A DNA stretch of 55,202 nucleotides from a bacterium (GCA_021158595.1 JAGGUF010000072.1:1-55202), one strand, 5' to 3'. Positions 21 through 53,053 are shown, counted from the stretch's first letter. The notes: a model not told the origin generated them from the sequence alone. Made by a program: numbers and translations.

Positions 21-200
21 CCTTTCCCCACCTTAATCCTCCCCCTCCCAGAGGGAGGAGGAGGATTTGAAGAAATCCCTAATTTCCTTTTCTTTCCAAA
101 GGAAGGGAAAATTTGGGGAGATCCCTAATTTCCCTTTTTGGGAGGAATACCCCACCCTAATTTCCTCTCCCTTCTTAATAGGAAGGAAAACCCTCTTTCA
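21..200. repeat. Cluster of polypyrimidine/polypurine hairpin repeats (family core copy at 31-75); may be truncated by the window edge
   Basis: CCTTAATCCTCCCCCTCCC-AGAG-GGAGGAGGAGGATT, followed by two weaker Y/R hairpins (TTTCCTTTTCTTTCC-AAA-GGAAGGGAAAA; CCTCTCCCTTC-TTAATA-GGAAGGAAAA). Same core as at 4360, 41738 and 49242. Confidence 0.8.
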
Positions 201-251
201 TTGCTAAAATGTCAAAATGTTAGAATGTTAGAATGTTAGAATGCTTATATG

Positions 252-1379
252 CTAACTGCTAATGTGACTCTTGATACTCTCTATTATACCAATTCCAATA
301 AATAATGAAAGGAGACTTGAACCTCCATAACTTAAGAATGGCAAAGGAAGTCCAGTAATAGGAAGAATTCCAATATTCATTGCAATATTAATAAAGACCT
401 CTGCTCCCACCAATATCATAAATCCTGAGATCAATAGACGAGAGAAGTTATTTTTGCAATTTTTTGCTATTGTCAAAAGACGGAAGAAAAATAAGACAAA
501 CAAGAGAAATAAAACAAAGATTCCAAAAATGCCAAACATTTCTGCAAAGGTAGCGAATATAAAATCAGTATGGGCTTCAGGCAGAAATCCTAATTTGGCT
601 TGGGTCAACGGTTGGAAAGGTCCCTTTCCAAAAATCCCTCCCGAGCCTACGGCAATAATGGACTGTCTAATATGATAACCCGTTCCCTGGGGATCAAGAT
701 ATTCTCCTTCCGGATTAATATAGGGCTCAAGAAAGGTGGAAAATCGAGTCTTCTGCTCTTCTGTTAAGAATAGGTTCCAAATTAAAAACAGAGAAAACAG
801 ACCAATTACCATAATCATTAAGATATGCTTTTGCTTAATTCCAGAGGTAAGAAGAATTCCAAACCACAAAATTACAAGAATCATTGCTGAGCCAAAATCT
901 GGCTGAAAAAAGACCAAAAGAGAGGGAATAAAGGCATAAATAGCACTAAGAAAAATATGCCTTGCCTGATACATCTCTACATAACGCTGGGAGAAATATT
1001 TTGCAAAAAATAAAATAAAAATTATCTTGGTAATTTCTACCGGTTCGAACCTAAAACTGCCAAAAGAATACCAGGATCTTGTTCCTCTAATTTCCGAGGC
1101 AAAGAAAAAAAGCCCTGCTAAAAGCAAAACACAAAAAGAATATAAAACAAAGACAAAGGCTGAACTTTCCTTTAGGGCTTCTATATCTAAAAAGGAAAGA
1201 CAAAGGACAATAACAATTCCTATTAAGAGAAAAATTGTCTGATTACGAAAATAGACCCAATTCTCCCATGATAAAGAAAGACTATAGAGAACAACAAGTC
1301 CTAAAACAGTAATAAGAGTTGCTAAAACCAAAAGGATCCAATCTAACCTTTTTAGGTGAGAAGTAATTGACTTTCTCAT
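252..1379 (-). CDS. SEDS-family peptidoglycan polymerase (FtsW/RodA)
   Basis: 375-aa polytopic membrane ORF with the C-terminal SEDS signature LPITGLPLPFLSYGGSSLL. Its start overlaps (ATGA) the TGA stop of the upstream ORF. Confidence 0.85.
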   Translation of the reverse strand: MRKSITSHLKRLDWILLVLATLITVLGLVVLYSLSLSWENWVYFRNQTIFLLIGIVIVLCLSFLDIEALKESSAFVFVLYSFCVLLLAGLFFFASEIRGTRSWYSFGSFRFEPVEITKIIFILFFAKYFSQRYVEMYQARHIFLSAIYAFIPSLLVFFQPDFGSAMILVILWFGILLTSGIKQKHILMIMVIGLFSLFLIWNLFLTEEQKTRFSTFLEPYINPEGEYLDPQGTGYHIRQSIIAVGSGGIFGKGPFQPLTQAKLGFLPEAHTDFIFATFAEMFGIFGIFVLFLLFVLFFFRLLTIAKNCKNNFSRLLISGFMILVGAEVFINIAMNIGILPITGLPLPFLSYGGSSLLSLFIGIGIIESIKSHISS

Positions 1380-1807
1380 TGTCTTTCTTCGGCCCTTTGC
1401 CAGTTGATATTTGTAATTCTAAAATGAAAGGTTTTGCCAGGTTTTTCAATACTCAACTCCTCTTGGATTTTTTTCTCTTTATTTCCCTCCAGTTCACATT
1501 TTCCTTTCTTTTGGGTTAAGACCTCTCCCTTTTCATTTTTTATCTCTAAGATATAATCAACATTTTTGGCAATAAACCTTAAATTGGGATTTTTTATTTG
1601 AACAGAAACCTCATAGACAAAGGGAGGCTTTGAGTTTTTTGATTTCATTTGAATCTGAGGATCTGTAATCTGTAAACCTTCAATTTCTTCTAGTGGCTCT
1701 GGCTTTTTATAAAAAAACCAAAAAATGGCTGCAATGAGTAAAAGAAAAACCAAAAAAGAAAGGACAATATTTGTTTGTTTTATTTTTCTGCCAAAGGGAG
1801 TAAGCAT
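1376..1807 (-). CDS. Hypothetical membrane-anchored protein
   Basis: 143-aa ORF with a single N-terminal TM helix (IVLSFLVFLLLIAAIFWFFY). Translationally coupled to the SEDS gene. No recognisable domain. Confidence 0.5.
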   Translation of the reverse strand: MLTPFGRKIKQTNIVLSFLVFLLLIAAIFWFFYKKPEPLEEIEGLQITDPQIQMKSKNSKPPFVYEVSVQIKNPNLRFIAKNVDYILEIKNEKGEVLTQKKGKCELEGNKEKKIQEELSIEKPGKTFHFRITNINWQRAEERQ

Positions 1808-1809
1808 AT

Positions 1810-3474
1810 TTACTGAAGGGAATAGGTATCCTTAAGAGATCTTTCAATCTCAAAGGTTTTTTCTGTCCAGTTATCTGTTGCTGTTAGTTTCACCTTTTTA
1901 ATAATCTCTTGAGGAAGTTCTGTTGGGATAATTTTCAATTGGATAAGATACTCTTTAGAAAAATTAGAGGAGATGGTTCCAATATCTAAAACCAAGGTTT
2001 TTTTCTCTTGGTCAAAATTATATTTTACGCTTTGGGGAAAGAGTTTTTCTTCAAAAGAGACGCCTTCTGGAAGAGAGGTTTCTATCTTTACATTCTTTAA
2101 CTTATTTCCCTTATTTTCTATCTTAAAACCAACCACAAAAAGCCTTTCTCTTCCTACTTCCAAAACAGAATCAGAATTTCCAAAATCAAAGACATCTTTT
2201 GCCTGGTCTGGCAATGATTCTAAATCTGAATAAATCTTTTCATCAAAAGAAACCTTAGAAGATATCTTGGTCTGGAATTGCTTCTCAATGGTTCCAAAGG
2301 TAATTTTTTCTTTAATTACTGCATTTTCCTTTGAAAAGTCAGATTTTACTTTTACCTCAAACCCTACCATATCCTTTTCATAGGGACCAAGAGACAAAAG
2401 TTTAGGAAAGTTTTTATAAGAAAAGGTAACTGTTTTGCCCTCAACCATCCCTCCGGGGATTGCCTTAAGGGTGGAAAAGTCTAAAACATTACTTTCCAGT
2501 TCCACTTTTAAATTTAAATTTTTATAATAATTATCTCCCGTGTTTACAAATTCAATTATGTAATTTAACTTCTCTCCTGGAGAAGCAGCATAGTTGTATT
2601 CTCCATTTACCTTTCGAAAAACATCTAAGGTCGAAGTGGTAATTTTTAGTATCTTCTGAACAGAAGAAAGAGGAATAAATTCGTATAATCTCTCATCAAA
2701 TATACCAAACTCTGCCCTAAACAATTTTTCCTCCCCTACCTCTCCCTTAACCTTTCCTTTTATTTCTCTTTTTCCTGCCTCGTTTTCATTTAAACTTCCT
2801 AAATCAAAAACAAGTGAATTTTCTGTTCTCTTCTCATTCTCGGTTTCTTCTGAAACCTTTTCAAATCCCTCTGGTAAAAAAAGTCGCACCTGAACATTTT
2901 GTAAGGGAAAGGGAAAGCCAGATTGCCAGGTGAAAGAGATGGGAAACTCTTCTTCGGGATTTATTTCAGTAGGACAGTTCATAGAGAATAAAACAGAGGT
3001 TTCAGAAATCCGGGTAGAAAAAGAGGTTTGATTTTTAAACTGGGTAGAGAGTCCTTTGGGATTATAAATTAAGAATGCCTTGGCTTCTTTTACTTCCTCT
3101 TTTGTTCCAAAAATTATTCCTGAAAAACTCTCGCTCTTTTCTTTTCCTTTAGGAAGAATTTTAATTATTCTTTCTTCTCTTTTTTTAATCTTGCCATCCT
3201 TTGTAAAAACACCTGAAGGATACTCAAAGGTTAGATTGAGATTTTCAATGGAAACATTGCTTTGATTTTTTATATTTACAATCCAAGATATCTCCTTTCC
3301 AGAGGTTATCTCTTGGGGTCCTGAAATTTTAAGAATAATATCCTCCTTGGAGAAGGCATTTTGAAAAAAGAAAAAATAAAGGATAGCCCCTATCCCTACA
3401 ATTAGCAAAAATACAAAAAGGCCCAATGTCTCTTTTTTTGTCCAATGGATCTCTTGATGAAGATTCATATTCAA
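1810..3474 (-). CDS. Hypothetical large N-terminally anchored extracytoplasmic protein
   Basis: 554-aa ORF with an N-terminal TM helix followed by a long beta-rich sequence. Tightly packed with its neighbours. No motif recognised. Confidence 0.5.
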   Translation of the reverse strand: MNMNLHQEIHWTKKETLGLFVFLLIVGIGAILYFFFFQNAFSKEDIILKISGPQEITSGKEISWIVNIKNQSNVSIENLNLTFEYPSGVFTKDGKIKKREERIIKILPKGKEKSESFSGIIFGTKEEVKEAKAFLIYNPKGLSTQFKNQTSFSTRISETSVLFSMNCPTEINPEEEFPISFTWQSGFPFPLQNVQVRLFLPEGFEKVSEETENEKRTENSLVFDLGSLNENEAGKREIKGKVKGEVGEEKLFRAEFGIFDERLYEFIPLSSVQKILKITTSTLDVFRKVNGEYNYAASPGEKLNYIIEFVNTGDNYYKNLNLKVELESNVLDFSTLKAIPGGMVEGKTVTFSYKNFPKLLSLGPYEKDMVGFEVKVKSDFSKENAVIKEKITFGTIEKQFQTKISSKVSFDEKIYSDLESLPDQAKDVFDFGNSDSVLEVGRERLFVVGFKIENKGNKLKNVKIETSLPEGVSFEEKLFPQSVKYNFDQEKKTLVLDIGTISSNFSKEYLIQLKIIPTELPQEIIKKVKLTATDNWTEKTFEIERSLKDTYSLQ

Positions 3475-3482
3475 TTGTAAGA

Positions 3483-4247: not shown

Positions 4248-4359
4248 ATTTTTAATAATATCACTCCACCCTCAATAAGAAAAGAGACTTATTTTGAATT
4301 TCTATAATTAAAAATTCTGGAATTGACTAAGGAGAATAAATAATGTTTAATAATAGAAT

Positions 4360-4488
4360 CCCCTCCCCCCTCCTTAATCCTCCCCCTCCCTGTGGGAGGG
4401 GGAGGATATAGGTGGGGGAGGGATTTCCCGCTCCACGCTCCACGCTTCAGGTAATTCTCAAACCCCTACCAAGTGGTTGGCAATTACA
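4360..4488. repeat. Hairpin-core repeat with extended flank (CACGCTTCAGG ... GGCAATTACA)
   Basis: Core 4360-4422: CCCCTCCCCCCTCCTTAATCCTCCCCCTCCC-TGTG-GGAGGGGGAGGATATAGGTGGGGGAGGG. The flank matches the reverse complement of 38248-38326. Confidence 0.85.
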
Positions 4489-4502
4489 GTATAGATTAAA
4501 AA

Positions 4503-5519: not shown

Positions 5520-5592
5520 GCCCTTGTAGTTCAATTGGATAGAACCTCTCCCTCCGGAGGAGAAAATGCAGGTTCAAGTCCTGCCAAGGGCA
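5520..5592 (+). tRNA. tRNA-Arg (anticodon CCG)
   Basis: Cloverleaf read by hand: acceptor GCCCTTG/CAAGGGC, D arm GTTC/GAAC, anticodon arm TCTCC-CTCCGGA-GGAGA, T arm GCAGG-TTCAAGT-CCTGC, discriminator A. Confidence 0.9.
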
Positions 5593-6020: not shown

Positions 6021-7754
6021 TTGTTTTACCTTGAGAAATGGAAGAAAAACAAGAATAAGTGGCCGTCAAAAAGACAGTGGTTTTCTTTTTTCACTGTTAT
6101 TTCAAAAAGAGAAAAAACCCTCTTTTTTCTCTTTTTATTTTCAGGTATCCTCTCTTTAATTTTTTGGCATCATTTCTCTTATTTAGAGAATACTGAACTT
6201 CAACCAGCCGAGGGAGGAATTCTAAAAGAAGCAATAGTAGGACAACCTCAGTCTTTAAATCCTATTCTCTCCTTGCTAAATGATGCTGATAGAGACATTT
6301 CTGAACTTACCTTTGCCGGCCTTTTAAACTATGACAAAAATGGAAATTTGGTTTGCGATCTCTGTGAGAAATATGAAATAACTGATAAGGGAAAGGGTTT
6401 CGAATTTACCCTAAAGAAGAATCTTCTTTGGTCAGATAACAAAAAAATTACTGCTAACGATGTAGTCTTTACTATAGAAACTATTCAAAATCCAGAAATC
6501 CAGAGTCCTCTAAAACTCGTATGGAAAGATGTAAAGGTAGAAGCCATAAATGAAAGAAAGGTAAAATTTACCTTAGAAAATCCTTATCCTCTTTTTCTTA
6601 AAAATTTTACCTTAAAAATTATACCATCTCATATCTTCAAAGAAACCACACCCCAAGAATTTCCTACCATCTTAACAGAAAGGTTTGTTGCTTCAGGTCC
6701 ATTTAAAATAAAAAATATTGAGAAGGATAAAGAAAATAAAATTAAAAAAATCATCCTTGAAAGAAATCCAAACTATTATGGAAACTCACCATTCCTGGAA
6801 GGAATAGAAATAAGTTTTGTAAAGAACAAGAAAGAACTTTTGGGTATTAGAGAAGAGGAAACAAGTTTGTCTGGAATTTCAGCCGCAGAAAAAGAAGAAC
6901 TAAAAGAAGAGGATTTTAATTTTTATTCCTTTGCCCTTCCCCGGTCTTTTGCGCTATTTCTAAACCAACAAAATGAACTTCTTTCCAAAAAAGAGATAAG
7001 AGAAGCCCTGGCTTCAGCCACTAATAAAAAGGAAATTGTTGAGAAGGTTCTTTTAGGAGAAGGAAGAATAGTAGATGGTCCCTTTCTTAAAGAAAACAAA
7101 ATTGGAGGAGAAATAAAAAAATATGAGTTTAACTTAGAAAAAGCCAAAAAGATATTGGAAAATGCCGGCTGGAAGGATACTGACAATGATAACATTCGAG
7201 ACAAAACAATTAACGAAAAGAAGTTTTCTCTAAAATTCAACTTATTTTTGGTAAAACAACCAGAACTTGAAAAAACAGCAGAGATTATAGAAAAAGATTG
7301 GGAAAAAATAGGAGTTAAGATAAATATAAATCCTATGGAACCCCAAGAACTTCTCCAGGAACATATTGAAAAAAGAAACTATGATATCTTGCTTTTTGGT
7401 CAAGACATCTCAATCATTCCTGACCCCTATCCCTTTTGGGCTTCTTCCCAAAAGGAATATCCAGGTTTAAATCTGTCTTTATATCAAAACCCGGAGGTAG
7501 ATAAAATTTTAAAAAATGCTCGGACAGAAAACGATGAAAACAAAAGAAAAAAACTTCTTCAAGACTTCCAATTAAAACTTACCGAAGATATCCCCGCAAT
7601 TTTCCTTTATAGTCCAAATTATATTTATGCTGTAAGAAAAGAAATCAAAGGAATTGAAGGAAAATATATAAATGATATTTCAAAAAGATTTATAGGAATT
7701 GAAAATTGGTATATCAATGAAAAAAGGGTACCGAAGAAGAGTAACCAAAAATAA
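6021..7754 (+). CDS. ABC transporter substrate-binding protein, family 5 (peptide/nickel type)
   Basis: 577 aa with an N-terminal TM/signal anchor; family-5 SBP-like blocks (LNPILS..., NPNYYG, AGWKDTDNDNIRDK). The ORF opens with TTG, so the exact start is uncertain. Confidence 0.65.
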   Translation: MFYLEKWKKNKNKWPSKRQWFSFFTVISKREKTLFFLFLFSGILSLIFWHHFSYLENTELQPAEGGILKEAIVGQPQSLNPILSLLNDADRDISELTFAGLLNYDKNGNLVCDLCEKYEITDKGKGFEFTLKKNLLWSDNKKITANDVVFTIETIQNPEIQSPLKLVWKDVKVEAINERKVKFTLENPYPLFLKNFTLKIIPSHIFKETTPQEFPTILTERFVASGPFKIKNIEKDKENKIKKIILERNPNYYGNSPFLEGIEISFVKNKKELLGIREEETSLSGISAAEKEELKEEDFNFYSFALPRSFALFLNQQNELLSKKEIREALASATNKKEIVEKVLLGEGRIVDGPFLKENKIGGEIKKYEFNLEKAKKILENAGWKDTDNDNIRDKTINEKKFSLKFNLFLVKQPELEKTAEIIEKDWEKIGVKININPMEPQELLQEHIEKRNYDILLFGQDISIIPDPYPFWASSQKEYPGLNLSLYQNPEVDKILKNARTENDENKRKKLLQDFQLKLTEDIPAIFLYSPNYIYAVRKEIKGIEGKYINDISKRFIGIENWYINEKRVPKKSNQK

Positions 7755-7759: not shown

Positions 7760-7843
7760 GCCGAAGTGGCGGAACTGGAAGACGCGACGGCTTCAGGAGC
7801 CGTTGGACGTAAGTCCTTAAGGGTTCGAATCCCTTCTTCGGCA
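7760..7843 (+). tRNA. tRNA-Leu (anticodon CAG), type II with long variable arm
   Basis: Acceptor GCCGAAG/CTTCGGC, anticodon arm ACGGC-TTCAGGA-GCCGT, long variable arm, T loop GGTTCGAATCC. Confidence 0.9.
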
Positions 7844-7914
7844 CATTCAAGAGTTCAGTAATATCAGCACAACAAATAATAAAACTTAGGATCTCTAAAA
7901 ATCTTTCTTGAAAT

Positions 7915-9628: not shown

Positions 9629-9657
9629 TTGACTACTTAATCTCAGGTTGCTATAAT
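9629..9657 (+). promoter_or_regulatory. Near-consensus sigma70 promoter with extended -10, upstream of the rpsF operon
   Basis: TTGACT (9629-9634), 17-nt spacer, TGcTATAAT (-10 at 9652-9657). Transcription would run through the whole repeat element at 9676-9983. Confidence 0.55.
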
Positions 9658-9675
9658 GCTTTTTAATCAAATATG

Positions 9676-9983
9676 TGTACAGTTTCACCACATTGTTTAC
9701 AATACTTTTTACAATAATAAGGAATTTCCTCCCCTTCCTTAATCCTCCCCCTCCCTCTGGGAGGAGGAAGAAATTGAGGAGATCCTCCTTAATCCTCCCC
9801 CTCCCTTTGGGAGCGGCGAGGATATAGATGGGTTTCCTTTCAAATCCTCCCCCTCCCTTTGGGAGGGGGAGGAGATAGGTGGGGGAGGGAAAAATAAAAA
9901 TAAATATAGGAAAAGGCAAAAGTCAAATACAAAGATTAAAGAGAAATTTGTCCTAATTGTGAACAACGTGGTGAAACTTTACA
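9676..9983. mobile_element. MITE-like non-coding element: 28-bp terminal inverted repeats enclosing three tandem hairpin cores
   Basis: Left end TGTACAGTTTCACCACATTGTTTACAAT (9676-9703). Reverse complement of the right end is TGTAAAGTTTCACCACGTTGTTCACAAT (9956-9983); 25/28 identical. The interior holds three core units (9738-9898). No ORF with coding character. Confidence 0.7.
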
Positions 9984-9986
9984 AAT

Positions 9987-10385
9987 ATGGTTCAATACGA
10001 ATTATCTTTTCTCATTCCCAATTTACAGGAAAAAGAAAGAGAGAAGATCTTAAAAGAAATAGAAGAGAAGATTAAAAGTCTCCAAGGAAAACTTGAAGAA
10101 AGTTTTATTGAAAAGAAAATCTTTGCTTATCCAGTAAAAAAGTACCAAGAAGGATTCTTAGGAGTTTTTGCCTTCTCGCTTGAAAGCGATAGAATAAAAG
10201 AATTTCAGAATTTTTTAAGATCAAACCAAAAGATCTTAAGAGAAATCATAGAAAGAAAGAAGCCCTCACCCTTGCTGAAACGAGTCGCTAAAGAAAAAAA
10301 GGTGGTTCTTGCCAAAAAACCTGTTAAAAAACAGAAGGTGAAAATAGAAAAATTGGATGAAAAATTAAAAGAAATTTTAAGGTAA
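9987..10385 (+). CDS. rpsF: 30S ribosomal protein S6
   Basis: YELSFLIPN start; rpsF-ssb-rpsR gene order. Confidence 0.85.
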   Translation: MVQYELSFLIPNLQEKEREKILKEIEEKIKSLQGKLEESFIEKKIFAYPVKKYQEGFLGVFAFSLESDRIKEFQNFLRSNQKILREIIERKKPSPLLKRVAKEKKVVLAKKPVKKQKVKIEKLDEKLKEILR

Positions 10386-13416: not shown

Positions 13417-13458
13417 ACTTCTTCTTTTTATCAAAAAAAATAAGGTTTTGCAACCAGA

Positions 13459-13530
13459 AGCCGAGGAGAGGACTCGAACCTCCAACCTACGGTTTACGAT
13501 ACCGCTGCTCTACCATTGAGCTACCTCGGC
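13459..13530 (-). tRNA. tRNA-Thr (anticodon CGU)
   Basis: Minus-strand cloverleaf: acceptor GCCGAGG/CCTCGGC, D arm GCTC/GAGC, anticodon arm GCGGT-ATCGTAA-ACCGT, T arm GGAGG-TTCGAGT-CCTCT. Confidence 0.9.
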
Positions 13531-13538
13531 CTGAAACT

Positions 13539-14910: not shown

Positions 14911-14938
14911 ATTTTACAAAACCCGCCCTGGGCGGGTT
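14911..14938 (-). terminator. Intrinsic terminator after rnpB
   Basis: Minus strand reads AACCCGCC-CAG-GGCGGGTT followed by TTTTGTAAAATTT. Starts 3 nt after the P1 3' strand of RNase P RNA. Confidence 0.6.
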
Positions 14939-14940
14939 AT

Positions 14941-15290
14941 GAGGGTAATTGTAAGCCGAATTCTGTCCCTCTTTGATAAAAGAGGTGGTAGTCATTTCTC
15001 TTGACCTGAAATTACTTTCAGGTTCAAGCCCTTGGATACCAGTTCCAAGGTTGCACCAAGCAGGGTTTACCACGAACTCTGATCTCTCAGAGCCGAGAGA
15101 GGTTTCACCTCTCACTTTTCACCTTTCTCTCGCTCCCATAGGAACGAGATAGTATAGTCTCTGTGGCACTTTCCCTACCCTCTCGGGTGGTGGGTGTTAC
15201 CCACTGCTTACTTCCGGGCTTATAGTCAGCCCGGGGTGTTCGGACTTTCCTCCCCCACCAATTAGGTGGAGGCGACTACCCATTACCCTC
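14941..15290 (-). ncRNA. rnpB: RNase P RNA, bacterial type A
   Basis: Minus strand starts GAGGGTAATGGGTAGTCGCC and contains GGAGGAAAGTCCGAAC (CR-I). It ends GACAGAATTCGGCTTACAATTACCCTC (CR-V, with the P1 3' strand pairing to the 5' end). Confidence 0.9.
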
Positions 15291-15298
15291 TTTCTATC

Positions 15299-16234: not shown

Positions 16235-17802
16235 TGATAGATAATCTTGACAAAAATCCTGTCTTCCCTCTCTGGAATCTTACTTACCCAAAATGGCCAG
16301 AGTTTTAGGGTAGCATTCTCTATTTTCTCTTTCATATTTTCATCAACATATTTTTGAAAATCTTCACCCCTCATTCCTTTTATTGCCTTCTTGATCTGTT
16401 CACTTGTTATCTTCCAAGCCACCTTCTCCTTTCCTTCAAACTCAATTTCCATTATTCCGCTTTCAATATCATTTTTTAAAATTTTGTATTTAACCTGCTG
16501 AGTAGAAACCACCTCCTCAACCTCTATATTCTTTTTTATCTTACTTAAGAGAACATCGGCAATAATTTTCTGAAAGTCTTCCTCACTAAAACCTAAAAAT
16601 TTTGCAATGATTCTTTCTCTTCCCTTAAAAACCTGAGCGATATCTCCTGGATTTTTATCAAAGGTAATTTCCTCGTCAATTGAAATTCCATCCGCTAAGG
16701 ATTGAAAATTAGGAGAGACCTCTTTTAAGATCTCTTGCTTTGCCTGAGAAATCAGATCTTGTTTTAACTTCAGCAATTCTTCCTTTGCTCTATTGATATC
16801 TGCCTGAGTGACTACAGTGGCTGTGCCAATAAATCCACCTTTCATCTTTTCAGTGGATTTGGCATATATCTTATCGTAAAGACCAGTTCCCTTAAGCCCT
16901 GGAAGAGTAAAGCGACTAGGTCCAATATTATATTCCTCGCCAGCCTCAGTTGCCTCTACCTCAATTTCTACTGTGCCTGGATTTTCTTTACTACCTGCAG
17001 GAATGGATATCCAATCAGAACCTGCCGGTTGGCGAAAGACCTTTCCATCCTCGGTTTCAAAACGGGTATGAGGAAGAAATCTGTAGGGGCTTGATGTTTC
17101 GTTATAGATTGTAATCTTTCCCCTGGCTTTATCTACCCTCTTCTCCTTTCCTGTAGCCTTAAAGGTTCTCTCAATCTGTTTTGTTTTTTCTAACACTGTT
17201 CCTGGAAGAACCCTTCCCTTAACATCAAGATTAGCATCCTTTTCTACCTTAAATCTTCCAGAGAATTCTATCTCTTGACCTGCAGGAATAATAGTAACCT
17301 CTGCCTTCGGAAGCCAGAGCAGAGAAAATGCCACCCCTCCTGCTATACCTATAAAAACCAAACTGTAAATTACCAAAGAAAGGATTCTTTTTTTCTTAAC
17401 AGAGGTTTCTTGTTTGATGGCCTTTTCTTTTCCCTCTTGTTTTTTATTAACAGATAGAGTCAATGGACTCTCTTCTGTTTTTGGTAAGACATCTCTTATC
17501 CGGGGACGAAAACTTAACTCTCCTTTGGTAGAAAAAGTGCCTCCAATCAAAGAATCTTCTACCTCAATTCCGCAGTCTTCAGCCAATCTTCTATAATAGG
17601 AATCTGTTGAAAATATACTTAACTTCTTTCCTAAATCCTGAGCCTGCTTTTTTAAAATAGTAAGAGCCTTAATATTCCTAAGGTTCTTGTTTTCTTCAGG
17701 CAAAACCAAAATTACCTTTTCTCTTTTGGTCTTCTTTATCTTCTCTCTTACCTTTTCCAAGTCATCTGGGGGATCAATGTAGAAAATTTGAGGGTAGTCC
17801 AT
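16231..17802 (-). CDS. Hypothetical protein, single mid-protein TM helix
   Basis: 523 aa with coding-like composition and operon packing. No motif identified with confidence. Confidence 0.5.
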   Translation of the reverse strand: MDYPQIFYIDPPDDLEKVREKIKKTKREKVILVLPEENKNLRNIKALTILKKQAQDLGKKLSIFSTDSYYRRLAEDCGIEVEDSLIGGTFSTKGELSFRPRIRDVLPKTEESPLTLSVNKKQEGKEKAIKQETSVKKKRILSLVIYSLVFIGIAGGVAFSLLWLPKAEVTIIPAGQEIEFSGRFKVEKDANLDVKGRVLPGTVLEKTKQIERTFKATGKEKRVDKARGKITIYNETSSPYRFLPHTRFETEDGKVFRQPAGSDWISIPAGSKENPGTVEIEVEATEAGEEYNIGPSRFTLPGLKGTGLYDKIYAKSTEKMKGGFIGTATVVTQADINRAKEELLKLKQDLISQAKQEILKEVSPNFQSLADGISIDEEITFDKNPGDIAQVFKGRERIIAKFLGFSEEDFQKIIADVLLSKIKKNIEVEEVVSTQQVKYKILKNDIESGIMEIEFEGKEKVAWKITSEQIKKAIKGMRGEDFQKYVDENMKEKIENATLKLWPFWVSKIPEREDRIFVKIIYQ

Positions 17803-21927: not shown

Positions 21928-21996
21928 CCCTCCCCCACCTATATCCTCCCTCTCCCAGAGGGAGGGGGAGGATTAAGGAGGGGGTGAAACTGTACA
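21928..21996. repeat. Hairpin-core repeat (opposite orientation) plus partial terminal repeat
   Basis: CCCTCCCCCACCTATATCCTCCCTCTCCC-AGAG-GGAGGGGGAGGATTAAGGAGGGG, then GGTGAAACTGTACA (reverse complement of the 9676 terminal repeat start). Ends 1 nt before the stop codon of the 21998 gene. Confidence 0.8.
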
Positions 21997-21997
21997 G

Positions 21998-36755: not shown

Positions 36756-36910
36756 TAAAGTTTCAGCACATTTAACCCCTCTTTGTATTCCTCCCCTTAA
36801 AAAGGGGGAGGAAATTGAGGTGTGGTATTCTCCTAAAAGAGAAAATAAGGACCCTCTCCAAATCCTCCCCCTCTCTCTGGGAGAGGAGGATTAAGGTGGG
36901 GGAGGAAAAG
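36756..36910. repeat. Repeat cluster: partial terminal repeat plus two Y/R hairpins
   Basis: TAAAGTTTCAGCACATTT (36756-36773) resembles the 9676 terminal repeat. Hairpins: CCTCCCC-TTAAAAA-GGGGAGG (36790-36811) and AATCCTCCCCCTCTC-TCT-GGGAGAGGAGGATT (36861-36892). Lies upstream of rpsT. Confidence 0.7.
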
Positions 36911-38247: not shown

Positions 38248-38470
38248 TGTAATTGCCCACATCTTGATAAGGATCTGGGATTGCCTGAAGCGTGAAACGC
38301 AAATTTCCAAAATTAAATCTCAAATTCCCCCACCTATATCCTCCCCCTTCCAGAGGGAGGGGGAGGATTAAGGAGGGGATCCTAAATCCCAAACGTTTGG
38401 AATTTGGAATTTCGTTCGCCCAGCCCTACTTTTGGAACAAAAGTGGGGCTGGGTTTCGGATTTCTCCCCC
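38248..38470. repeat. Composite repeat: GGCAATTACA/CACGCTTCAGG flank (inverted), hairpin core, AT-rich units, GGGGCTGGG hairpin
   Basis: Core 38327-38378: CCCCCACCTATATCCTCCCCCTTCC-AGAG-GGAGGGGGAGGATTAAGGAGGGG. Hairpin 38419-38453: CCCAGCCCTACTTTTG-GAAC-AAAAGTGGGGCTGGG. Fills the holA/acyP convergent spacer. Confidence 0.85.
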
Positions 38471-41614: not shown

Positions 41615-41863
41615 CTTAAATGTTAGATGTCAAATCTCAAATCCATATGTCAAATCTCAAATCTAAATACAGTAAAGAAAAATCCGAAATTCTAAATCCT
41701 AATGTTTCAAATTTTAAACGTTTGGGATTTCGGATTTCCCTTCCCCTCCTTAATCCTCCCCCTCCCTCTGGGAGGGGGAGGATATAGGTGGGGGAGGGAA
41801 AATCCCAAATCCTAAATTCTAAACGTTTGAGATTTGGAACAAAAGTGGGGCTGGGTTTCGGAT
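41615..41863. repeat. Composite repeat: tandem ATGTCAAATCTCAAATC units, hairpin core, AT-rich units, half GGGGCTGGG module
   Basis: 17-nt direct repeat at 41627-41643 and 41647-41663. Core 41738-41798: CCCTTCCCCTCCTTAATCCTCCCCCTCCC-TCTG-GGAGGGGGAGGATATAGGTGGGGGAGGG. GGAACAAAAGTGGGGCTGGGTTTCGGAT at 41836-41863. Confidence 0.85.
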
Positions 41864-41944
41864 GGGCAGGTTGATTATCAAAGTGGTTAGATACTACATT
41901 TTAGCAAACAATAAGCCTTTAGTAAACTCAAGGATCCTTCTGAT

Positions 41945-41980
41945 AAAAAACCAGCACCAATATATTGGTGCTGGTTTTTT
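41945..41980. terminator. Bidirectional intrinsic terminator
   Basis: AAAAAACCAGCACCAATATATTGGTGCTGGTTTTTT: perfect stem CCAGCACCAATA/TATTGGTGCTGG (12 bp; 14 bp counting the flanking A-T pairs) flanked by an A-run and a T-run. Confidence 0.75.
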
Positions 41981-41994
41981 AAGACAAAGAATCC

Positions 41995-42075
41995 TTATCT
42001 TTTCTTTCTTTTTCTTGAACTCTTTTTCTTTGTGCTCTTACTTTTCTTTGTCTTTCTTGTTTTCTTTTTAGCCAT
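41995..42075 (-). CDS. Candidate 26-aa highly basic micro-protein
   Basis: ATG GCT AAA AAG ... AGA TAA gives MAKKKTRKTKKSKSTKKKSSRKRKKR. The strong terminator begins ~15 nt after the stop. Below the ORF-track length cut-off. Confidence 0.3.
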   Translation of the reverse strand: MAKKKTRKTKKSKSTKKKSSRKRKKR

Positions 42076-45172: not shown

Positions 45173-46129
45173 TTAACCTGGATTTAAACTCGACCATTTG
45201 CCACAACGGTCCCCCCAACGGGCTACTACCTTTCCGTCAATTCTTGCTTCAATAACCTCGCAGCGATTAGGGCACCCGTTACACTGAAAAGAGGTGCATT
45301 TTATATCCTTATCAGCCACATCAAAACCCAAAAATTTGGTCTTTTTAGGAGAATTTTCTTTAACCAATAAAGCCACTCCAAAGGCTCCCATTACCTTGTT
45401 GTATTTCGGAACAATAATTTTCTCTCCCAATTCTTCCTCAAAGGCTTTCCTCATTCCTACATTTTCTGAAACTCCTCCTTGAAAGACAATAGGAGGTTTT
45501 ATATTTTTCCCTCTTGCCACATTGCTTAAAAAATTCCTGGCTAATCCTTGGCAGAGTCCAGCCACAATATCTTCAATTTTGTGACCAATTTGCTGTTTGT
45601 GAATCATATCAGACTCTGCAAAGACGGTGCATCTACTTGAAATGGTAGTCGGATTTTTAGATTTTAATGCCAACTCTCCAAATTTTTCTATAGGGATTTT
45701 CAATCTTTGGGCTTGATTATCGAGAAAAGAACCAGTACCGGCGGCACAGATTAAATTCATAGCAAAATCAACGACTACTCCGTTTTCCAAAATAATAACC
45801 TTTGAATCCTGGCCCCCAATCTCAATCACTGTTCTCACATCAGGTACAAAAAAAGAAGCCCCTTTAGCGTGAGCCGTAATTTCATTTTTTACCAAATCTG
45901 CTCCGGTAATCACTCCTACCAATTGTCTGGCAGATCCGGTTGCGCCTACTCCTTTTATCTCTGCTCCCTTAGGCATTTTCTCCCTTAGAAGTTTTAGTCC
46001 TTTTTTGACTGCCTTTATAGGATCTCCTTCAGTACGGATATAAAGAGAAAACAAAACATTTGCCTTCTCGTCAATTAAGACAAAGTTAGTAGAGATAGAG
46101 CCAACATCAATACCCAAATAGGTTTTCAT
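45173..46129 (-). CDS. BcrA/BadF/HgdC-type ATPase (activase-like) with C-terminal Cys-rich extension
   Basis: LGIDVGSISTNFVLID and AAGTGSFLD ASKHA motifs; C-terminal CTSFQCNGCPNRCEV...CGKW. Confidence 0.55.
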   Translation of the reverse strand: MKTYLGIDVGSISTNFVLIDEKANVLFSLYIRTEGDPIKAVKKGLKLLREKMPKGAEIKGVGATGSARQLVGVITGADLVKNEITAHAKGASFFVPDVRTVIEIGGQDSKVIILENGVVVDFAMNLICAAGTGSFLDNQAQRLKIPIEKFGELALKSKNPTTISSRCTVFAESDMIHKQQIGHKIEDIVAGLCQGLARNFLSNVARGKNIKPPIVFQGGVSENVGMRKAFEEELGEKIIVPKYNKVMGAFGVALLVKENSPKKTKFLGFDVADKDIKCTSFQCNGCPNRCEVIEARIDGKVVARWGDRCGKWSSLNPG

Positions 46130-46135
46130 AAAAAA

Positions 46136-46384: not shown

Positions 46385-46397
46385 ATTCGTCCAGATT

Positions 46398-46496
46398 CCC
46401 CACCTATATCCTCAAGGGAGGATTAAAGAGGAAAAGAGATTCCTTTTATTGTAATTATTGTAAAAAGTATTGTAAACAATAGGGTGAAAGTTTACA
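46398..46496. repeat. Degenerate repeat copy with one intact terminal repeat (atpD/atpC spacer)
   Basis: Core remnant CCCCACCTATATCCTC-AAG-GGAGGATTAAAGAGG. The reverse complement of 46469-46496 is TGTAAACTTTCACCCTATTGTTTACAAT, about 24/28 identical to 9676-9703. Ends 1 nt before the atpD stop codon. Confidence 0.75.
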
Positions 46497-46497
46497 A

Positions 46498-48149
<1,652 letters not shown>

Positions 48150-49116: not shown

Positions 49117-49145
49117 ATCAAAATTTTATTTGATATGGAATTGCT

Positions 49146-49353
49146 AACCAATAAGGTTATATCCAAGATGAAAGTTGACACCTTTTTACCATCTTACATA
49201 TTATGGACAAAACTGGAAATATTTCCAATGTTTTTAATAATCCCTCCCCCTCCTTAATCCTCCCCCTCCCTTTGGGAGGGGGAGGATATAGGTGGGAGAG
49301 GGAAATCTTCCTCTATTAACTGTTAACTTTTATTTTGCATTCAACCAATAAGG
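49146..49353. repeat. Repeat copy flanked by 11-bp direct repeats (atpA/atpG spacer)
   Basis: AACCAATAAGG at 49146-49156 and 49343-49353. Core 49242-49302: CCCTCCCCCTCCTTAATCCTCCCCCTCCC-TTTG-GGAGGGGGAGGATATAGGTGGGAGAGGG. Confidence 0.75.
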
Positions 49354-49367
49354 ATTAAGAGATAGCC

Positions 49368-50891
49368 TTATCCCGTAGGTGATGAATTGGTTAGATTGAT
49401 ATATCTCCTTCTTACCTCTTCTATTGCTTTTCTTAAATCTTCCTCTGTTTCTTTATCCAAATCTTTTGTCTCTCTTATTTTTCTCAAAATATCAGGCTTC
49501 TGATTCTCTAAATAAAGAAATAGATCTCTCTCAAATCTTTTCACCTGGTCTAATTTTATCTTGTCCAAAAAGCCCCTTGTGCCAGCAAAAATAATAGCGA
49601 CCTGCTTTTCAAAAGGTAAGGGAGTACCTCTTTCTTGTTTTAAAATCTCTCTTAATCGTTTTCCTCTTTCTAATCTCTTCCTTGTTTCTTCATCCACCTC
49701 CTCCGCAAATCCCAAAAACCGCTCTAATTCCTGAAATTGAGCAATCTCCAGTTTTAGTTTTCCTGCCACCTTCTTCATTGCTTTGGTTTGAGCATTGGAA
49801 CCTACTCTGGAAACAGAAAGACCAATATTCACTTCTGGTCTTTGGCCGGATAAACGCAATTCTGTGTCCATTATAATCTGCCCATCACAAATAGAAATTA
49901 AATTGGTAGGAATATAAGCAGTAACATCCCCTGCCTGGGTTTGAAGAATAGGAAAAGCAGTCATAGAACCCCCTCCCTTCTCTTTGCTTAATTTTCCTGC
50001 TCTTTCTAAAAGTCTTGAATGTAAATAAAAAATATCTCCAGGATAAGCCTCTCTTCCGGGAGGTCTTCTTAAGATTAAAGATATCTCTCTCCAGGCATAG
50101 GCGTGTCTTCCTAACTCATCATAGACAATTAATACATCCTTGCCTTTATCCATAAAATACTCACCCATAGCACATCCAGCATAAGGAGCAAGATACCAAA
50201 GTGAGGATGGATCTGAAGCAGAGGCACAAACCACAATAGTGTAATCGGTCGCTTTGTGCTTTTTCAAGGTCTTAATAATTCTTGCCACTTCCATCCTTTT
50301 ATACCCTATTGCCACATAAATACATACAGGTCTTTTGGGTTCATTTTTTTGATTTATAATAGCATCAATGGCTAAACCTGTCCTGTCTGTGATATTGTCT
50401 CCCAAAATTAGTTCCCTTTGACCTCTACCAATAGGAATTAAGGCATCCAATACCTTTATCCCGGTATGCAAAGGAAAATTTACCGGTTCCCTCTCAATCA
50501 CTGAAGGTGCTATTCTCTCTATAGGATAAAACTCTTTGTAAGAAACATCTCCTTTGCCATCTATCGGCTTTCCCAAAGGATTAACTACTCTTCCTATAAG
50601 GACTTCTCCCACAGGCACAGAGAGGATCTTATTTGTTCTCTTTACAATATCCCCTTCTTTCAGTTTTGAGTAGTCACCAAAAACTATTGCTCCTACCTCA
50701 TCTCTTTCTAAATTAACAGCCAAACCCAAAATCTTCTCTTTAAACTCCAAGACCTCCATTGATTTTACATTTTTCAAACCAGAGATCTTTACTATCCCAT
50801 CCTTTACCTCCAAAACCTCCCCTATCTCTTCTACCTTGACCTCTGTAGCCAGTCTATCAATTTCTTTTTTTAAATACTCTGCAATTTCCAT
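49368..50891 (-). CDS. atpA: ATP synthase F1 alpha subunit
   Basis: Degenerate alpha-subunit P-loop region RGQRELILGDNITDRTGLAIDAI, SRLLERAGKL, GGGSMTAFPILQTQAGDVTAYIPTN; 507 aa. Confidence 0.9.
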   Translation of the reverse strand: MEIAEYLKKEIDRLATEVKVEEIGEVLEVKDGIVKISGLKNVKSMEVLEFKEKILGLAVNLERDEVGAIVFGDYSKLKEGDIVKRTNKILSVPVGEVLIGRVVNPLGKPIDGKGDVSYKEFYPIERIAPSVIEREPVNFPLHTGIKVLDALIPIGRGQRELILGDNITDRTGLAIDAIINQKNEPKRPVCIYVAIGYKRMEVARIIKTLKKHKATDYTIVVCASASDPSSLWYLAPYAGCAMGEYFMDKGKDVLIVYDELGRHAYAWREISLILRRPPGREAYPGDIFYLHSRLLERAGKLSKEKGGGSMTAFPILQTQAGDVTAYIPTNLISICDGQIIMDTELRLSGQRPEVNIGLSVSRVGSNAQTKAMKKVAGKLKLEIAQFQELERFLGFAEEVDEETRKRLERGKRLREILKQERGTPLPFEKQVAIIFAGTRGFLDKIKLDQVKRFERDLFLYLENQKPDILRKIRETKDLDKETEEDLRKAIEEVRRRYINLTNSSPTG

Positions 50892-50915
50892 AGTGGATTG
50901 TAGATTGTTGGTTGT

Positions 50916-51314
50916 TTAGTTGTAGGTTGTAAGTTCTTCTTCTACCTTTTGAAGCAAACCTCTAATTGAGGCATCTATTAAAAAATTTTCTGTCTTTATA
51001 ATAAATCCCCCAAGAATATCTTTGTTTATTTTCATCTCTGTCATTTGAGATTCTTGAAAAACATCCCTGAAGGTTGTTTTTATTTTTTCTAAAACTTCTC
51101 TATCAGGCTCTCTGGCAAAAACCAAGATTCCCTTTTTTCTTTTTAAATACCTTTGATAGGCCTTCAAAATCCGAGGCAAAAGATAAAGTTTCCTTTTTCT
51201 TCTTAAAACCTCTATCATATCTTTTATCATCCTTTCCTTTCTCCACTCTTCTTTCTCTTTTGCTGCCTTATCTAAAATTTTTATGCATTTTTCAACTTGA
51301 TCTTCCATACTCAT
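50916..51314 (-). CDS. atpH: ATP synthase delta (OSCP) subunit, shortened
   Basis: 132 aa. C-terminal block DILGGFIIKTENFLIDASIRGLLQKV matches the delta C-terminus. Overlaps atpF by 23 nt. Confidence 0.7.
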   Translation of the reverse strand: MSMEDQVEKCIKILDKAAKEKEEWRKERMIKDMIEVLRRKRKLYLLPRILKAYQRYLKRKKGILVFAREPDREVLEKIKTTFRDVFQESQMTEMKINKDILGGFIIKTENFLIDASIRGLLQKVEEELTTYN

Positions 51315-51828
51315 TTTGAAATTTCATTAATATCTGTTCAATTAAGTTTTTATCTTTTTTCTTATCAAGTTTCTTCTTTAAAATTTCCTCTGTCAATATG
51401 ATACTTGTTTTTATTGCCTCTTTTTCTATTCTCTTCCTTATCTCTTCCTTTTTTCTCGCAGCCTCCTCCATAGCCTCTTTAATTATTCTCTCTCTCTCTT
51501 TCTCTCCTTCAGAAATAATCTTCTCTGAAAGCCCCTTCCCCTTCTCCTCTGCCGCTTTGGCTATCTGAATGGCTTTCTCTCTAGCATTGTCCAAAATTCT
51601 TTTTTCTTTCTCTCTTATCTTCTTAATTTTTTTCTCTATCTCCTCTGAATTTCTAATTCCCTGTTCAATTTTACTTCTTCTCTTCTCCAAAAGAGACAAA
51701 AATGGAGTATAAACAAATCTCTTTAAAAGATATAAAAGAATAGCAAAGTTAATAATCTGCCCTAATAAAATTTTCCAATCAATTCCAATTTTACCCATAT
51801 CTAATAAACTCCTTTTAATATCTAACAA
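51292..51828 (-). CDS. atpF: ATP synthase Fo b subunit
   Basis: Single N-terminal TM helix followed by a long E/K/R-rich helix; operon position. Confidence 0.8.
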   Translation of the reverse strand: MLDIKRSLLDMGKIGIDWKILLGQIINFAILLYLLKRFVYTPFLSLLEKRRSKIEQGIRNSEEIEKKIKKIREKEKRILDNAREKAIQIAKAAEEKGKGLSEKIISEGEKERERIIKEAMEEAARKKEEIRKRIEKEAIKTSIILTEEILKKKLDKKKDKNLIEQILMKFQNEYGRSS

Positions 51829-51848
51829 ACTAAAAATTTATAAATCCA

Positions 51849-52076
51849 CTAAACAAATTTAATAACAAGAGCCACTACCAAGGCATAGATTGCCACAGCC
51901 TCAGCAAAGGCAATTGCCAATATCATTCCCGTCTGAATCTTGCTTGAGGCTTCAGGGTTTCTACCCATTGCCTTTAGTCCCTCTTTTCCAATAAGACCAA
52001 TAGCAAGAGCCGGTATCATTGTGCCTATGGCAATGGTTAAAGCAGTAGCTATGTTTTTGACAACTTCAGCATCCAT
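51849..52076 (-). CDS. atpE: ATP synthase Fo c subunit
   Basis: 75-aa hairpin; GRNPE loop and carboxylate helix AFAEAVAIYALVVAL. Confidence 0.9.
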   Translation of the reverse strand: MDAEVVKNIATALTIAIGTMIPALAIGLIGKEGLKAMGRNPEASSKIQTGMILAIAFAEAVAIYALVVALVIKFV

Positions 52077-52079
52077 ATT

Positions 52080-52832
52080 TTATTTTTCACCCAAATCTTG
52101 AGACCTTGAATTTGCGACCTTTTGTTGTTGAGAATGCTCTGTGGCGCTAGTATAAAAAATGACTACCAGAGAAGAAAAGATAAGAGCCTGTATAAACCCC
52201 ACAATAATTTCTAATGCCAAAAATGGTAGAGGAACAAAATAGGCAATCAAAAAGGAACTAATTATCAAAAGCACCTCTCCGGCAAATATATTCCCAAACA
52301 ACCGAAAGGCAAGAGAAAAACACTTGGTAATCTCACTTATCCCTTCTAAAATGCCTACAAAAAAGAGAATAGGATTCTTGAAATTTAAAAATCTTTTAGA
52401 ATAGGTAAAAAAGCCTAATCGTTTAAGAGAAAGGATATTTATAAAAATAATAGAGAAAAGAGCCAAGCCAAGAGTAAGATTTAAATCAGAGGTTGGAGCC
52501 CGCAAAAAATGAAAAACTCCCAATCCTGGAAGCAATTCTACATAGTTACAAAAAAGAATAAGAATAAAAAGAGTAGCGGCTATAGGAAAAATCTCTTTGG
52601 TCTTTTTTCTATCACGGGTAATAGAATCAATGAAATTAAAAATAGACTCCAAAATCCATTCAGCAAAATTTTGGAGTCTGGAAGGAATAAACTTCCTATT
52701 TTTAAAAACAAAATAGAAAACAGCAAAAATAAGAATCTCAATAATGAGACTCAAAAGAAAGGTGTTTGTTATATCAAAACCAAAGAGCCCAAATAGTTTC
52801 TCTCCAGAAATAGTAATATCAGGCATCCCCAT
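52080..52832 (-). CDS. atpB: ATP synthase Fo a subunit
   Basis: Polytopic; conserved Arg helix SLAFRLFGNIFAGE. Confidence 0.9.
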   Translation of the reverse strand: MGMPDITISGEKLFGLFGFDITNTFLLSLIIEILIFAVFYFVFKNRKFIPSRLQNFAEWILESIFNFIDSITRDRKKTKEIFPIAATLFILILFCNYVELLPGLGVFHFLRAPTSDLNLTLGLALFSIIFINILSLKRLGFFTYSKRFLNFKNPILFFVGILEGISEITKCFSLAFRLFGNIFAGEVLLIISSFLIAYFVPLPFLALEIIVGFIQALIFSSLVVIFYTSATEHSQQQKVANSRSQDLGEK

Positions 52833-52944
52833 ATAATAGATATAAAGAAGTTTTTGTTCTTATTTTAGAGATTAAAAATCTCAATACCTTGTATTATTCT
52901 TTCTGCTAAAAATTATATACCTTTTTACCTATCTCTGTCAAGAT

Positions 52945-53053
52945 CCCTCCCTCACCTCTCTCCTCCCCCTTCCCAGAGGGAGGAGGATTGGGGAGGATCT
53001 CCTCAGTTATCCTCCCCCTCCCTTTGGGAGGGGGAGGACTAAGGAGGGGTGGG
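52945..53053. repeat. Two adjacent hairpin-core repeats upstream of the atp operon
   Basis: 52945-52996: CCCTCCCTCACCTCTCTCCTCCCCCTTCCC-AGAG-GGAGGAGGATTGGGGAGG. 53009-53053: ATCCTCCCCCTCCC-TTTG-GGAGGGGGAGGACTAAGGAGGGGTGGG. Confidence 0.85.

Follow-up and report, generated by a model that had tools for sequence, protein, structure and literature searches.

The 55,202-nt bacterial contig JAGGUF010000072.1 of assembly GCA_021158595.1, hereafter called the window and analyzed over its whole length, carries between its genes a family of GC-rich hairpin repeats, each made of a pyrimidine arm, a short loop and a purine arm. The best explanation, which we consider likely, is that this hairpin forms the central building block of a family of mobile elements that are small, non-coding and non-autonomous; part of this explanation is that the family was gained or expanded in a narrow lineage of uncultivated bacteria. 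Transposition was shown for one composite, located at 9676–9983 in the leader of rpsF, and slippage-type change in the number of units was shown as well. A preliminary description, made from the sequence alone, had read the repeats as a modular, unnamed intergenic family of the REP/BIME, BOX or Correia kind, and this reading is supported and strengthened by the transposition evidence.

A hairpin family between genes and a transposed composite in the rpsF leader

A covariance model (R1) was built from 34 distinct full-length copies of the unit and run on the window with filters off at E<0.01. It returned 16 hairpin units, spread over all eleven loci listed in the preliminary description, and its only matches outside these loci were the unrelated CCCAGCCCC hairpins. 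The core CCTCCCCCTCCC occurs 24 times in the window at no more than one mismatch, compared with 0.38 occurrences expected by chance, and a repeat search of the window gave one family of 65 nt in 12 copies. Each of the 16 units is intergenic, in agreement with the earlier statement that no copy lies in a coding sequence. The coding density of the window is 89% and intergenic DNA makes up 10.6% of it, and the chance of 11 independent loci all being intergenic is about 2 × 10−11. The combined length of the eleven loci is 2022 nt, which amounts to 35% of the window's intergenic DNA. The units are the GC islands that had been described (GC 0.43–0.68 against about 0.35 for the window), both orientations are seen among the R1 matches, and the doublets (47983–48093, 52945–53053), the triple (9738–9898) and the example sequence quoted for 4360–4422 are correct as given. 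The order of pyrimidine arm, loop and purine arm also held, while the loop, given as 3–4 nt, is 3 nt in most copies. The additional modules are real, namely the AAATCYNAAATYC units, the CCCAGCCCC...GGGGCTGGG hairpin, the CACGCTTCAGG...GGCAATTACA flank and the 28-nt terminal repeat, and element ends close to start or stop codons can be read from the sequence at 9983/9987, 21996/21998 and 46496/46498. Copies are irregularly spaced, at distances between 50 nt and 17 kb, and adjacent units abut directly, which rules out a CRISPR array.

The composite at 9676–9983 has inverted ends of 28 nt (9676–9703 versus 9956–9983, 25 of 28 positions matching), and its interior holds three units (9738–9776, 9777–9838 and 9843–9892) and an A-rich right part. 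A perfect 6-bp duplication, AATATG, directly abuts both ends. The only open reading frame (ORF) across the composite is a spurious 97-codon reading of the hairpins, and there is no transposase gene. Contigs from other assemblies that were compared with the window carry L numbers; one of them, L163, is 97% identical to the window over 14 kb (RNase J, 99%) and has an empty site at rpsF. This site reads ...TAATCAAATATG/GTTCAATAC... (the slash marks the junction, also written ...TCAAATATG/GTTCAA...), with one AATATG and a spacer of 57 nt, and no unit is found anywhere in the 15.5 kb of L163. With its inverted ends, a target duplication matched by an empty site, a length below about 400 bp and no transposase gene, the composite is a true MITE (miniature inverted-repeat transposable element). 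In L161 (about 85% DNA identity) the rpsF site holds a 206-nt version in which the hairpins number one rather than three and the left duplication is mutated. The same type of element stands at different sites in the metagenome-assembled genome (MAG) labelled Omnitrophica 4484_213: L041 carries at 6225–6304 the right part, 96% identical, and L026 carries the left end followed by about nine hairpins. Ends of this type occur also in L161, L026 and L041, and in the window truncated copies with such an end abut stop codons at 21997 and 46497.

Unit number also differs between close relatives. L156 and L157 encode identical AtpG proteins, and their atpA–atpG spacers differ only by a clean 51-nt indel of one unit between direct repeats; indels so placed are what slippage or unequal recombination would give. 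Between the window and L151 (SecA 90% identical), a 49-nt unit indel is found upstream of hpf, where L151 has a doublet, and the spacer downstream of NadE has 48 nt and no unit in the window, compared with two units and about 197 nt in L151. Between atpG and atpD, the window has a stretch of about 225 nt, the doublet included, that L156 lacks. The rpsT spacer and the atpD/atpC junction hold differently deleted remnants in the two lineages compared, and the number of units per element is one in L161, three in the window and about nine in L026. The presence/absence polymorphism at orthologous spacers that had been suggested as a check was found between strains that are 97% identical and between strains with identical AtpG. 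Clean empty sites were also sought for stand-alone units, and the candidate sites held differently deleted copies instead.

Metagenome contigs often end at units, as a low-complexity assembly artefact might produce. However, L001–L003, other assemblies of the window strain, are 99.7–99.8% identical to the window with the same copies in place, and L151, L156, L157 and L161, from other samples, also carry copies, orthologous ones among them. Because independent assemblies of different samples reproduce the same copies at the same positions, an artefact, which the preliminary description had named as a test, is excluded. Each arm is furthermore a mirror-like homopurine–homopyrimidine tract with G3–G5 runs, as could be expected of non-B DNA (cruciform, H-DNA triplex, G-quadruplex or i-motif) with a structural role in the chromosome, but the hairpin competes strongly with such forms (−31 kcal/mol as DNA). 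The G-quadruplex or i-motif formation suggested in the preliminary description is speculative. Taken together, we regard non-B DNA or an artefact as an extremely improbable account of the repeats.

Structure, distribution and the search for a mobilizing enzyme

The full unit is 61 nt long, with about 26 pairs, and consists in order of the outer pyrimidine arm CCCTCCCCCTCC, TTAAT, the inner arm CCTCCCCCTCCC, the 3-nt loop, GGGAGGGGGAGG, ATATA and GGTGGGGGAGGG. The stem spans 29 positions, of which three are conserved non-pairs: columns 10/52 are unpaired in 32 of the 34 copies, and columns 14/48 and 15/47 in 33. The fold has a predicted energy of −58 kcal/mol as RNA (z about −5). Since the arms run pyrimidine then purine, both strands read alike, and the orientation of a unit is visible only in the mismatches. 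Units occur singly, as inverted doublets or as tandem arrays and are combined with several end modules that are used repeatedly, namely TGTAMAGTTTCACC..., GGTTGAATGCAAAAT... and TGTAATTGCC.... In the inverted doublets (47988–48093 and 52945–53054) the outermost arms of the two units are mutually complementary and the mismatch of the single unit is resolved; a doublet is foldable as one long structure of −85 kcal/mol.

This architecture could also mean that the hairpin itself is mobile and is copied as folded single-stranded DNA by an HUH tyrosine transposase that has been domesticated (RAYT, IS200/IS605-like), with the composites as occasional carriers, as in REP/REPIN systems. The units are GC-rich imperfect palindromes of REP size, present extragenically in many copies as singles and inverted doublets, and have no inverted ends when they stand alone. 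Their non-paired positions are conserved, as recognition of the folded strand by a protein predicts, and the outer arms CCCCCACCTATAT and ATATAGGTGGGGG of the inverted doublets are complementary, as in REPINs. However, the one proven event has inverted ends and a 6-bp duplication, which are not products of IS200/IS605-type enzymes, and no tetranucleotide such as GTAG is common to the 5′ flanks of about 80 copies. A scan for the HUH...Y motif gave a single ORF, in a locus of 59% GC where the core match is without the outer arms of the family, and phmmer with E. coli RayT gave no match better than E = 0.34 in the approximately 450 kb around the copies, a weak test in comparison with whole genomes. 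Overall, copying by a RAYT-type enzyme seems unlikely.

Other genomes were searched by exact match to the inner stem among 185,579 species genomes, and only the matches listed were considered. Among these, matches with outer arms come from the low-GC MAGs CALGBJ01, AUK069, AUK048, AUK056, AUK254 and Omnitrophica 4484_213, from several MAGs labelled Saccharibacteria, and from single Paceibacterota and Parcubacteria MAGs; the GC-rich matches lack outer arms and look like chance. The repeat-bearing MAGs in this set are labelled Omnitrophica 4484_213, Saccharibacteria, Paceibacterota or simply "bacterium", and the label 4484-213 is given to a class of Omnitrophota in PMC10066038. Further copies, which the preliminary description had proposed to look for, are thus present in at least five other uncultivated genomes. 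The proteins of the window share only 25–71% identity with those of the repeat-bearing MAGs, against up to 94–98% for the units; near-identical units with the same mismatch positions recur across these MAGs, and end modules are common to several genomes. A second hairpin subfamily, TCTCCCCCCTTCCC-TTT-GGGAAGGGGGGAGA, followed in most copies by TTAAGAG (L004, L007, L009, L026, L047 and L065), stands beside the main family in CALGBJ01 and the 4484_213 MAG and is absent from the window.

On the other hand, no unit was found in 80 SecA-anchored metagenome loci (48–71% identity, 1.08 Mb), nor in L152–L155 (73–75%), L158–L160 (AtpG 66–67%) or L164; overall, the unit-free relatives have 48–79% protein identity and cover more than 1.2 Mb. 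The atp spacers of outgroups measure −20 to 263 nt, overlapping genes included, versus 113–351 nt in the window. The distribution is patchy, as CALGBJ01 has only 68% SecA identity yet many copies. For SecA, AtpG and RNase J, every one of the nearest homologues with a name is from Patescibacteria (Nealsonbacteria, Paceibacterota, Parcubacteria, Minisyncoccales and Portnoybacteria), and judged by its sequence the host is probably an uncultivated, ultra-small bacterium of the Patescibacteria (Paceibacterota-like). That its genome is streamlined, as the preliminary description had it, is plausible. At the gathering score, Rfam matched in the window only an RNase P RNA and three tRNAs, with no family at the eleven loci, and a rescan of 52800–55202 at a permissive E-value gave for the 52945–53054 doublet only sub-threshold, microRNA-like chance matches. 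No match to the hairpin family was found in phage contigs, plasmids or phages, and literature searches by sequence string and by topic found no description of these repeats. The statement that the repeats belong to no named family therefore stands, and the hairpin family is previously undescribed and belongs to the MITE/BOX/REP-BIME-like repeats.

The near-invariance of the units across genomes with strongly diverged proteins could instead reflect selection by the host, the units being cis-regulatory elements (attenuators, promoter insulators, mRNA-stabilizing caps or protein sites) whose mobility is incidental. Units lie between atp cistrons and beside strong promoters, and the element in the atpA–atpG spacer appears about 95% conserved (by eye) between the window and L156/L157, with genes at 86–91% identity. 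However, presence and absence differ between 97%-identical strains and between strains with identical AtpG, positions vary among orthologous neighbourhoods, and divergent, convergent and tandem spacers are used alike in either orientation. Many copies are visibly decaying, and close relatives manage without units. We thus hold host-selected regulation to be improbable.

The arms also contain a Shine-Dalgarno-like motif (purine arm TAAGGAGG) and an anti-Shine-Dalgarno-like one (pyrimidine arm CCTCCTTA), by which units could serve as ribosome decoys or switches. In the window, only 13 of 53 core genes have even a loose 4-nt purine match upstream, canonical GGAGG is rare, and the lone purine arm of L156 lies directly upstream of the atpC start codon. 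But such motifs are a trivial consequence of the (CCTCCC)n/(GGGAGG)n composition, and units stand in probably untranscribed positions and in both orientations. The upstream regions of core genes are AT-rich and mostly without Shine-Dalgarno sites, and the hairpin-free relatives L152 and L153 lack these sites equally; since the trait does not track the repeats, mimicry was rejected as the main explanation and has in our view very little chance of being correct. No 16S 3′ end was present among the compared loci.

Several observations weigh against a family of mobile elements moved in trans. In addition to the missing RayT homologue, neither a transposase with matching ends nor a gene recurring beside units nor a multi-copy gene was found in the same approximately 450 kb, again a weak test compared with whole genomes. 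An empty site was found for one composite only, and no target duplication was seen at stand-alone units. The 97%-identical L163 lacks the insertion while the 85%-identical L161 has it, a pattern that calls for an exact loss, for more than one insertion at the same site or for recombination among strains. Base-pair covariation in the 34-copy alignment was not above shuffled controls; as the loci from other genomes were found by exact match to the inner stem, the inner stem is invariant in this alignment by construction. Relative to transcription, four units are sense and seven antisense, without bias, and a rough hand tally of the pair-type changes gave about as many U.G as other non-pair changes; selection of one strand at the level of RNA was rejected. 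Finally, the unit sequence is more conserved than neutral decay predicts, which may mean a function at the level of the host rather than selfish spread. No partner insertion sequence with the same ends was found among the 155 loci, plasmids or phages compared, a limited set beside whole genomes.

A further reading, which we consider a doubtful one, is that the 61-nt hairpin is a self-propagating or host-adopted module, recognized in its folded form by a dedicated protein common to several uncultivated, ultra-small lineages. It is suggested by mismatches that are conserved across genomes of 25–71% protein identity and resolved in doublets, and by the persistence of units in essential operons. 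If true, this would be a new hairpin system, either a REPIN/RAYT-like partnership or an RNA punctuation of operons in genomes that initiate without Shine-Dalgarno sites.

Placement of the copies, predicted effects and neighbouring features

According to the preferred explanation, a family of non-autonomous mobile elements, composites with inverted ends transpose into AT-rich intergenic targets, duplicating about 6 bp, for which an enzyme must be supplied in trans. The 50–61-nt unit changes in number locally, from singles to inverted doublets and to arrays of three to about nine, and undergoes partial deletions, and copies are found only between genes. Many copies would be co-transcribed with the flanking genes and fold in the RNA into hairpins that measure −40 to −58 kcal/mol and have no U tail. 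In particular, the rpsF promoter (TTGACT-17-TATAAT, extended −10) lies upstream of the insertion, and therefore the rpsF-ssb-rpsR mRNA should carry three very stable hairpins in its leader; in the empty-site allele of L163, this leader would measure only about 10 nt. Three spacers within the F-type ATP synthase operon also hold copies (atpA/atpG, atpG/atpD and atpD/atpC). Efficient termination is unlikely at hairpins expected in the rpsF leader and between atp cistrons. In the terminator scan of the window no unit scored as terminator-like and no T tail follows the units, while a genuine, perfect bidirectional terminator of 38 nt was found at 41944–41981. Given the missing T tail and the element in the leader of the essential rpsF operon, a reading of the units as intrinsic terminators was rejected. 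By analogy with REP, SMAG and Correia elements (PMC3184786), the most likely role of the units would be to hinder exoribonucleases and to provide sites of pausing or processing, which would alter the stability of mRNA segments; RNase J is encoded beside the rpsF-leader element. The doublet 3 nt from the −35 box of atpB is probably untranscribed. This points to some copies being no more than tolerated passengers or acting at the DNA level, and fits passengers tolerated wherever they are harmless.

Streamlining and a scarcity of repetitive or mobile DNA are usually ascribed to Patescibacteria and other ultra-small bacteria of that kind. Here, one modular repeat family makes up a third of the intergenic DNA of a 55-kb contig, and is active enough to differ between 97%-identical strains; the ATP synthase operon tolerates it between its genes, as does the leader of a ribosomal protein operon. 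This is unusually clear evidence of recent activity in a lineage thought poor in such elements. The repeats could serve as a high-resolution strain marker, the unit number stepping by about 50 nt, and might explain why assemblies of these genomes break at certain points. They also offer a natural test of how very stable hairpins affect operon expression in organisms that so far cannot be cultured, and could help to track down the enzyme by which the elements are moved.

The copies in the window and the neighbouring features are collected in Table 1. Divergent, convergent and tandem spacers all hold copies. In the decayed array at 77–200, the linker ATCCCTAATTTCC precedes two of the three hairpins and CCCTAATTTCC the third, and a similar array in L026 has about nine units. 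An end related to module B, ...GGTTAGCAATTACA, is present in L151. At the SLOG/rpsT spacer, the sole remnant in L151 is a copy without a purine arm, and at atpD/atpC only a purine arm remains in L156. The hpf-upstream spacers of L073, L075 and L078 are about 46–400 nt long and contain no unit. The candidate second MITE at 49146–49353 has imperfect inverted ends (49155–49181 versus 49320–49346, 19 of 27 matching) and is bounded by an 11-nt direct repeat, AACCAATAAGG (49146–49156 and 49343–49353); its right module recurs in L038, L020, L017 and L067, from three other genomes, and no empty site was seen among the compared contigs.

Table 1. Hairpin copies and neighbouring features of the window; flanking genes were identified by Pfam.
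Position	Strand	Feature	Gene context	R1 units	Details
22–76		hairpin unit	downstream of ftsW/rodA	22–76	outer purine arm replaced; 41.2 bits, E = 1 × 10−7
77–200		decayed array, three short pyrimidine/purine hairpins			read from sequence; weak R1 match only, 72–123
4362–4422	+	full 61-nt unit	divergent recO/BadF-type ATPase spacer	4362–4422	85.9 bits
4427–4489	+	end module B (CACGCTTCAGG...GGCAATTACAG)			inverted copy at 38248–38300
5520–5592		tRNA gene			Arg-CCG
7760–7844		tRNA gene			Leu-CAG
9629–9657		rpsF promoter			
9670–9675	+	target duplication AATATG, left copy			single AATATG at the L163 empty site
9676–9983	+	MITE, 308 nt	rnj (RNase J)/rpsF spacer, rpsF leader	9738–9776, 9777–9838, 9843–9876	
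9984–9989	+	target duplication AATATG, right copy			its ATG (9987–9989) is the rpsF start codon
9987–11056		rpsF-ssb-rpsR cluster			
13457–13531		tRNA gene			Thr-CGT
14936–15291	−	class A RNase P RNA			
21928–21997	−	unit fused to outer 14 nt of a 9676–9983-type inverted end (GGTGAAACTGTACA)	phosphoesterase/NUDIX spacer	21928–21988	80 bits; end abuts stop codon of the 21998–22747 gene; orthologous copy at 17468–17527 of L161
36773–36906		two units, the first a short variant	divergent SLOG/rpsT spacer	36773–36825, 36848–36906	
38248–38470		composite	convergent holA/acylphosphatase spacer	38323–38383	inverted module B 38248–38300; unit on − strand, orthologous to 9623–9683 of L151; CCCAGCCCC...GGGGCTGGG hairpin 38419–38461
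41615–41863		composite	upstream of hpf (S30AE)	41738–41798	unit on + strand between AT-rich AAATCYNAAATYC units; half CCCAGCCCC module 41833–41863
41995–42075	−	26-codon ORF			followed by the 41944–41981 terminator
45173–46129		BadF/BcrAD-type ATPase	downstream of atpC		318 aa
46393–46497	−	truncated element	atpD/atpC spacer (113 nt)	46393–46438	end abuts atpD stop codon; inverted end and subterminal part 46454–46497; hairpin with deleted inner stem 46393–46438
47857–48149		composite	atpG/atpD spacer (351 nt)	47988–48037 (−), 48034–48093 (+)	AT-rich modules around inverted doublet
49146–49353		candidate second MITE	atpA/atpG spacer (251 nt)	49242–49302	sigma-70-like site, 11/12, 49175–49204 (+)
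52941–52912	−	atpB promoter			12/12 consensus
52945–53054		inverted doublet	3 nt upstream of −35 box of atpB promoter	52945–52997, 52998–53054	between the atpB promoter and the divergent promoter at 53138–53166
53138–53166	+	sigma-70 promoter			12/12 consensus, extended −10
53138–53340	+	candidate small RNA gene			
53340–55202		segment resembling an integrated foreign element			

The promoter at 53138–53166 is followed by a structured stretch of 168 nt (−83 kcal/mol, z = −7.8) that ends in a CCCAGCCCC...GGGGCTGGG hairpin, has no Rfam match and no homologue in the compared loci, and is possibly a gene for a small RNA. Parts of the hairpin at its 3′ end are found again at 38419–38461 and 41833–41863. 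Right after this candidate RNA gene begins what looks like an integrated foreign element, with a GC content of 0.41–0.43, the opposite GC skew and plus-strand ORFs without Pfam match. Unlike the rest of the window, these ORFs have strong Shine-Dalgarno sites (AGGAGGTG); the box AGCACTTTWAAAAGGCACTCAAAG precedes two of them and the shorter AGCACTTTAAAAAA a third. At the corresponding position upstream of the atp operon, L156 (3022–3621) and L157 (1908–2507) encode a 199-aa protein with a Pfam TFIIB match, an unusual finding in a bacterium; in the window, this position is taken by the candidate RNA gene and the foreign segment.

In the same two contigs, which are 89% relatives, the BadF/BcrAD-type ATPase is a 457-aa protein with intein and Hint matches (L156, 11412–12785; L157, 10349–11722). 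The window protein has no such match, and the difference is the presence or absence of an intein; L158 has an intein in another neighbouring gene. The 26-codon ORF at 41995–42075 encodes a very basic peptide, MAKKKTRKTKKSKSTKKKSSRKRKKR, in DNA that is 88% conserved in L151, and L073 has a comparable short, lysine-rich ORF in the matching spacer. No rplI gene (ribosomal protein L9) follows the rpsF-ssb-rpsR cluster; what comes next is a gene on the opposite strand.

Comparison with known repeat systems

The BOX elements of Streptococcus pneumoniae (boxA-boxB(n)-boxC) are likewise modular, non-coding, non-autonomous and intergenic, with stable folds, and share the A-B(n)-C architecture, in which terminal modules enclose tandem internal units of variable number. 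Mobilization of BOX in trans is presumed, and BOX is transcribed (PMC3184786). The likeness is one of architecture; a similarity in sequence is not apparent, no BOX sequences having been compared directly. The present family differs in that the internal unit is itself a pyrimidine/purine hairpin of 29 positions, that this unit also stands alone and with several alternative end modules, and that the host is of an uncultivated lineage resembling the candidate phyla radiation.

The RAYT-associated REP/BIME and REPIN sequences of Proteobacteria are GC-rich imperfect palindromes of 21–65 nt with conserved imperfections, extragenic, single or in clusters that include inverted doublets, and found inside operons; known roles of REP in mRNA stability (PMC3184786) are the model for the function proposed above. 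In contrast, the arms here are strictly homopyrimidine or homopurine, neither a RAYT in the sequence around the copies nor a GTAG-like 5′ motif was found, and the proven mobility, with inverted ends and target duplication, is not of the REP/RAYT mode.

Correia elements (MITEs of Neisseria), RUP, ERIC and Nezha resemble the composites in their size of 100–400 bp, terminal inverted repeats, target duplication, lack of a transposase gene, long stem-loops and insertion next to genes. The Correia target duplication is the dinucleotide TA, compared with the 6 bp of AATATG here. The inverted ends are moreover unrelated in sequence, the interior of the present elements is an expandable array of GC-rich hairpins, and there is no known partner insertion sequence. 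Some bacterial MITEs carry promoter-like sequences (PMC3184786), and the same is true of the present family.

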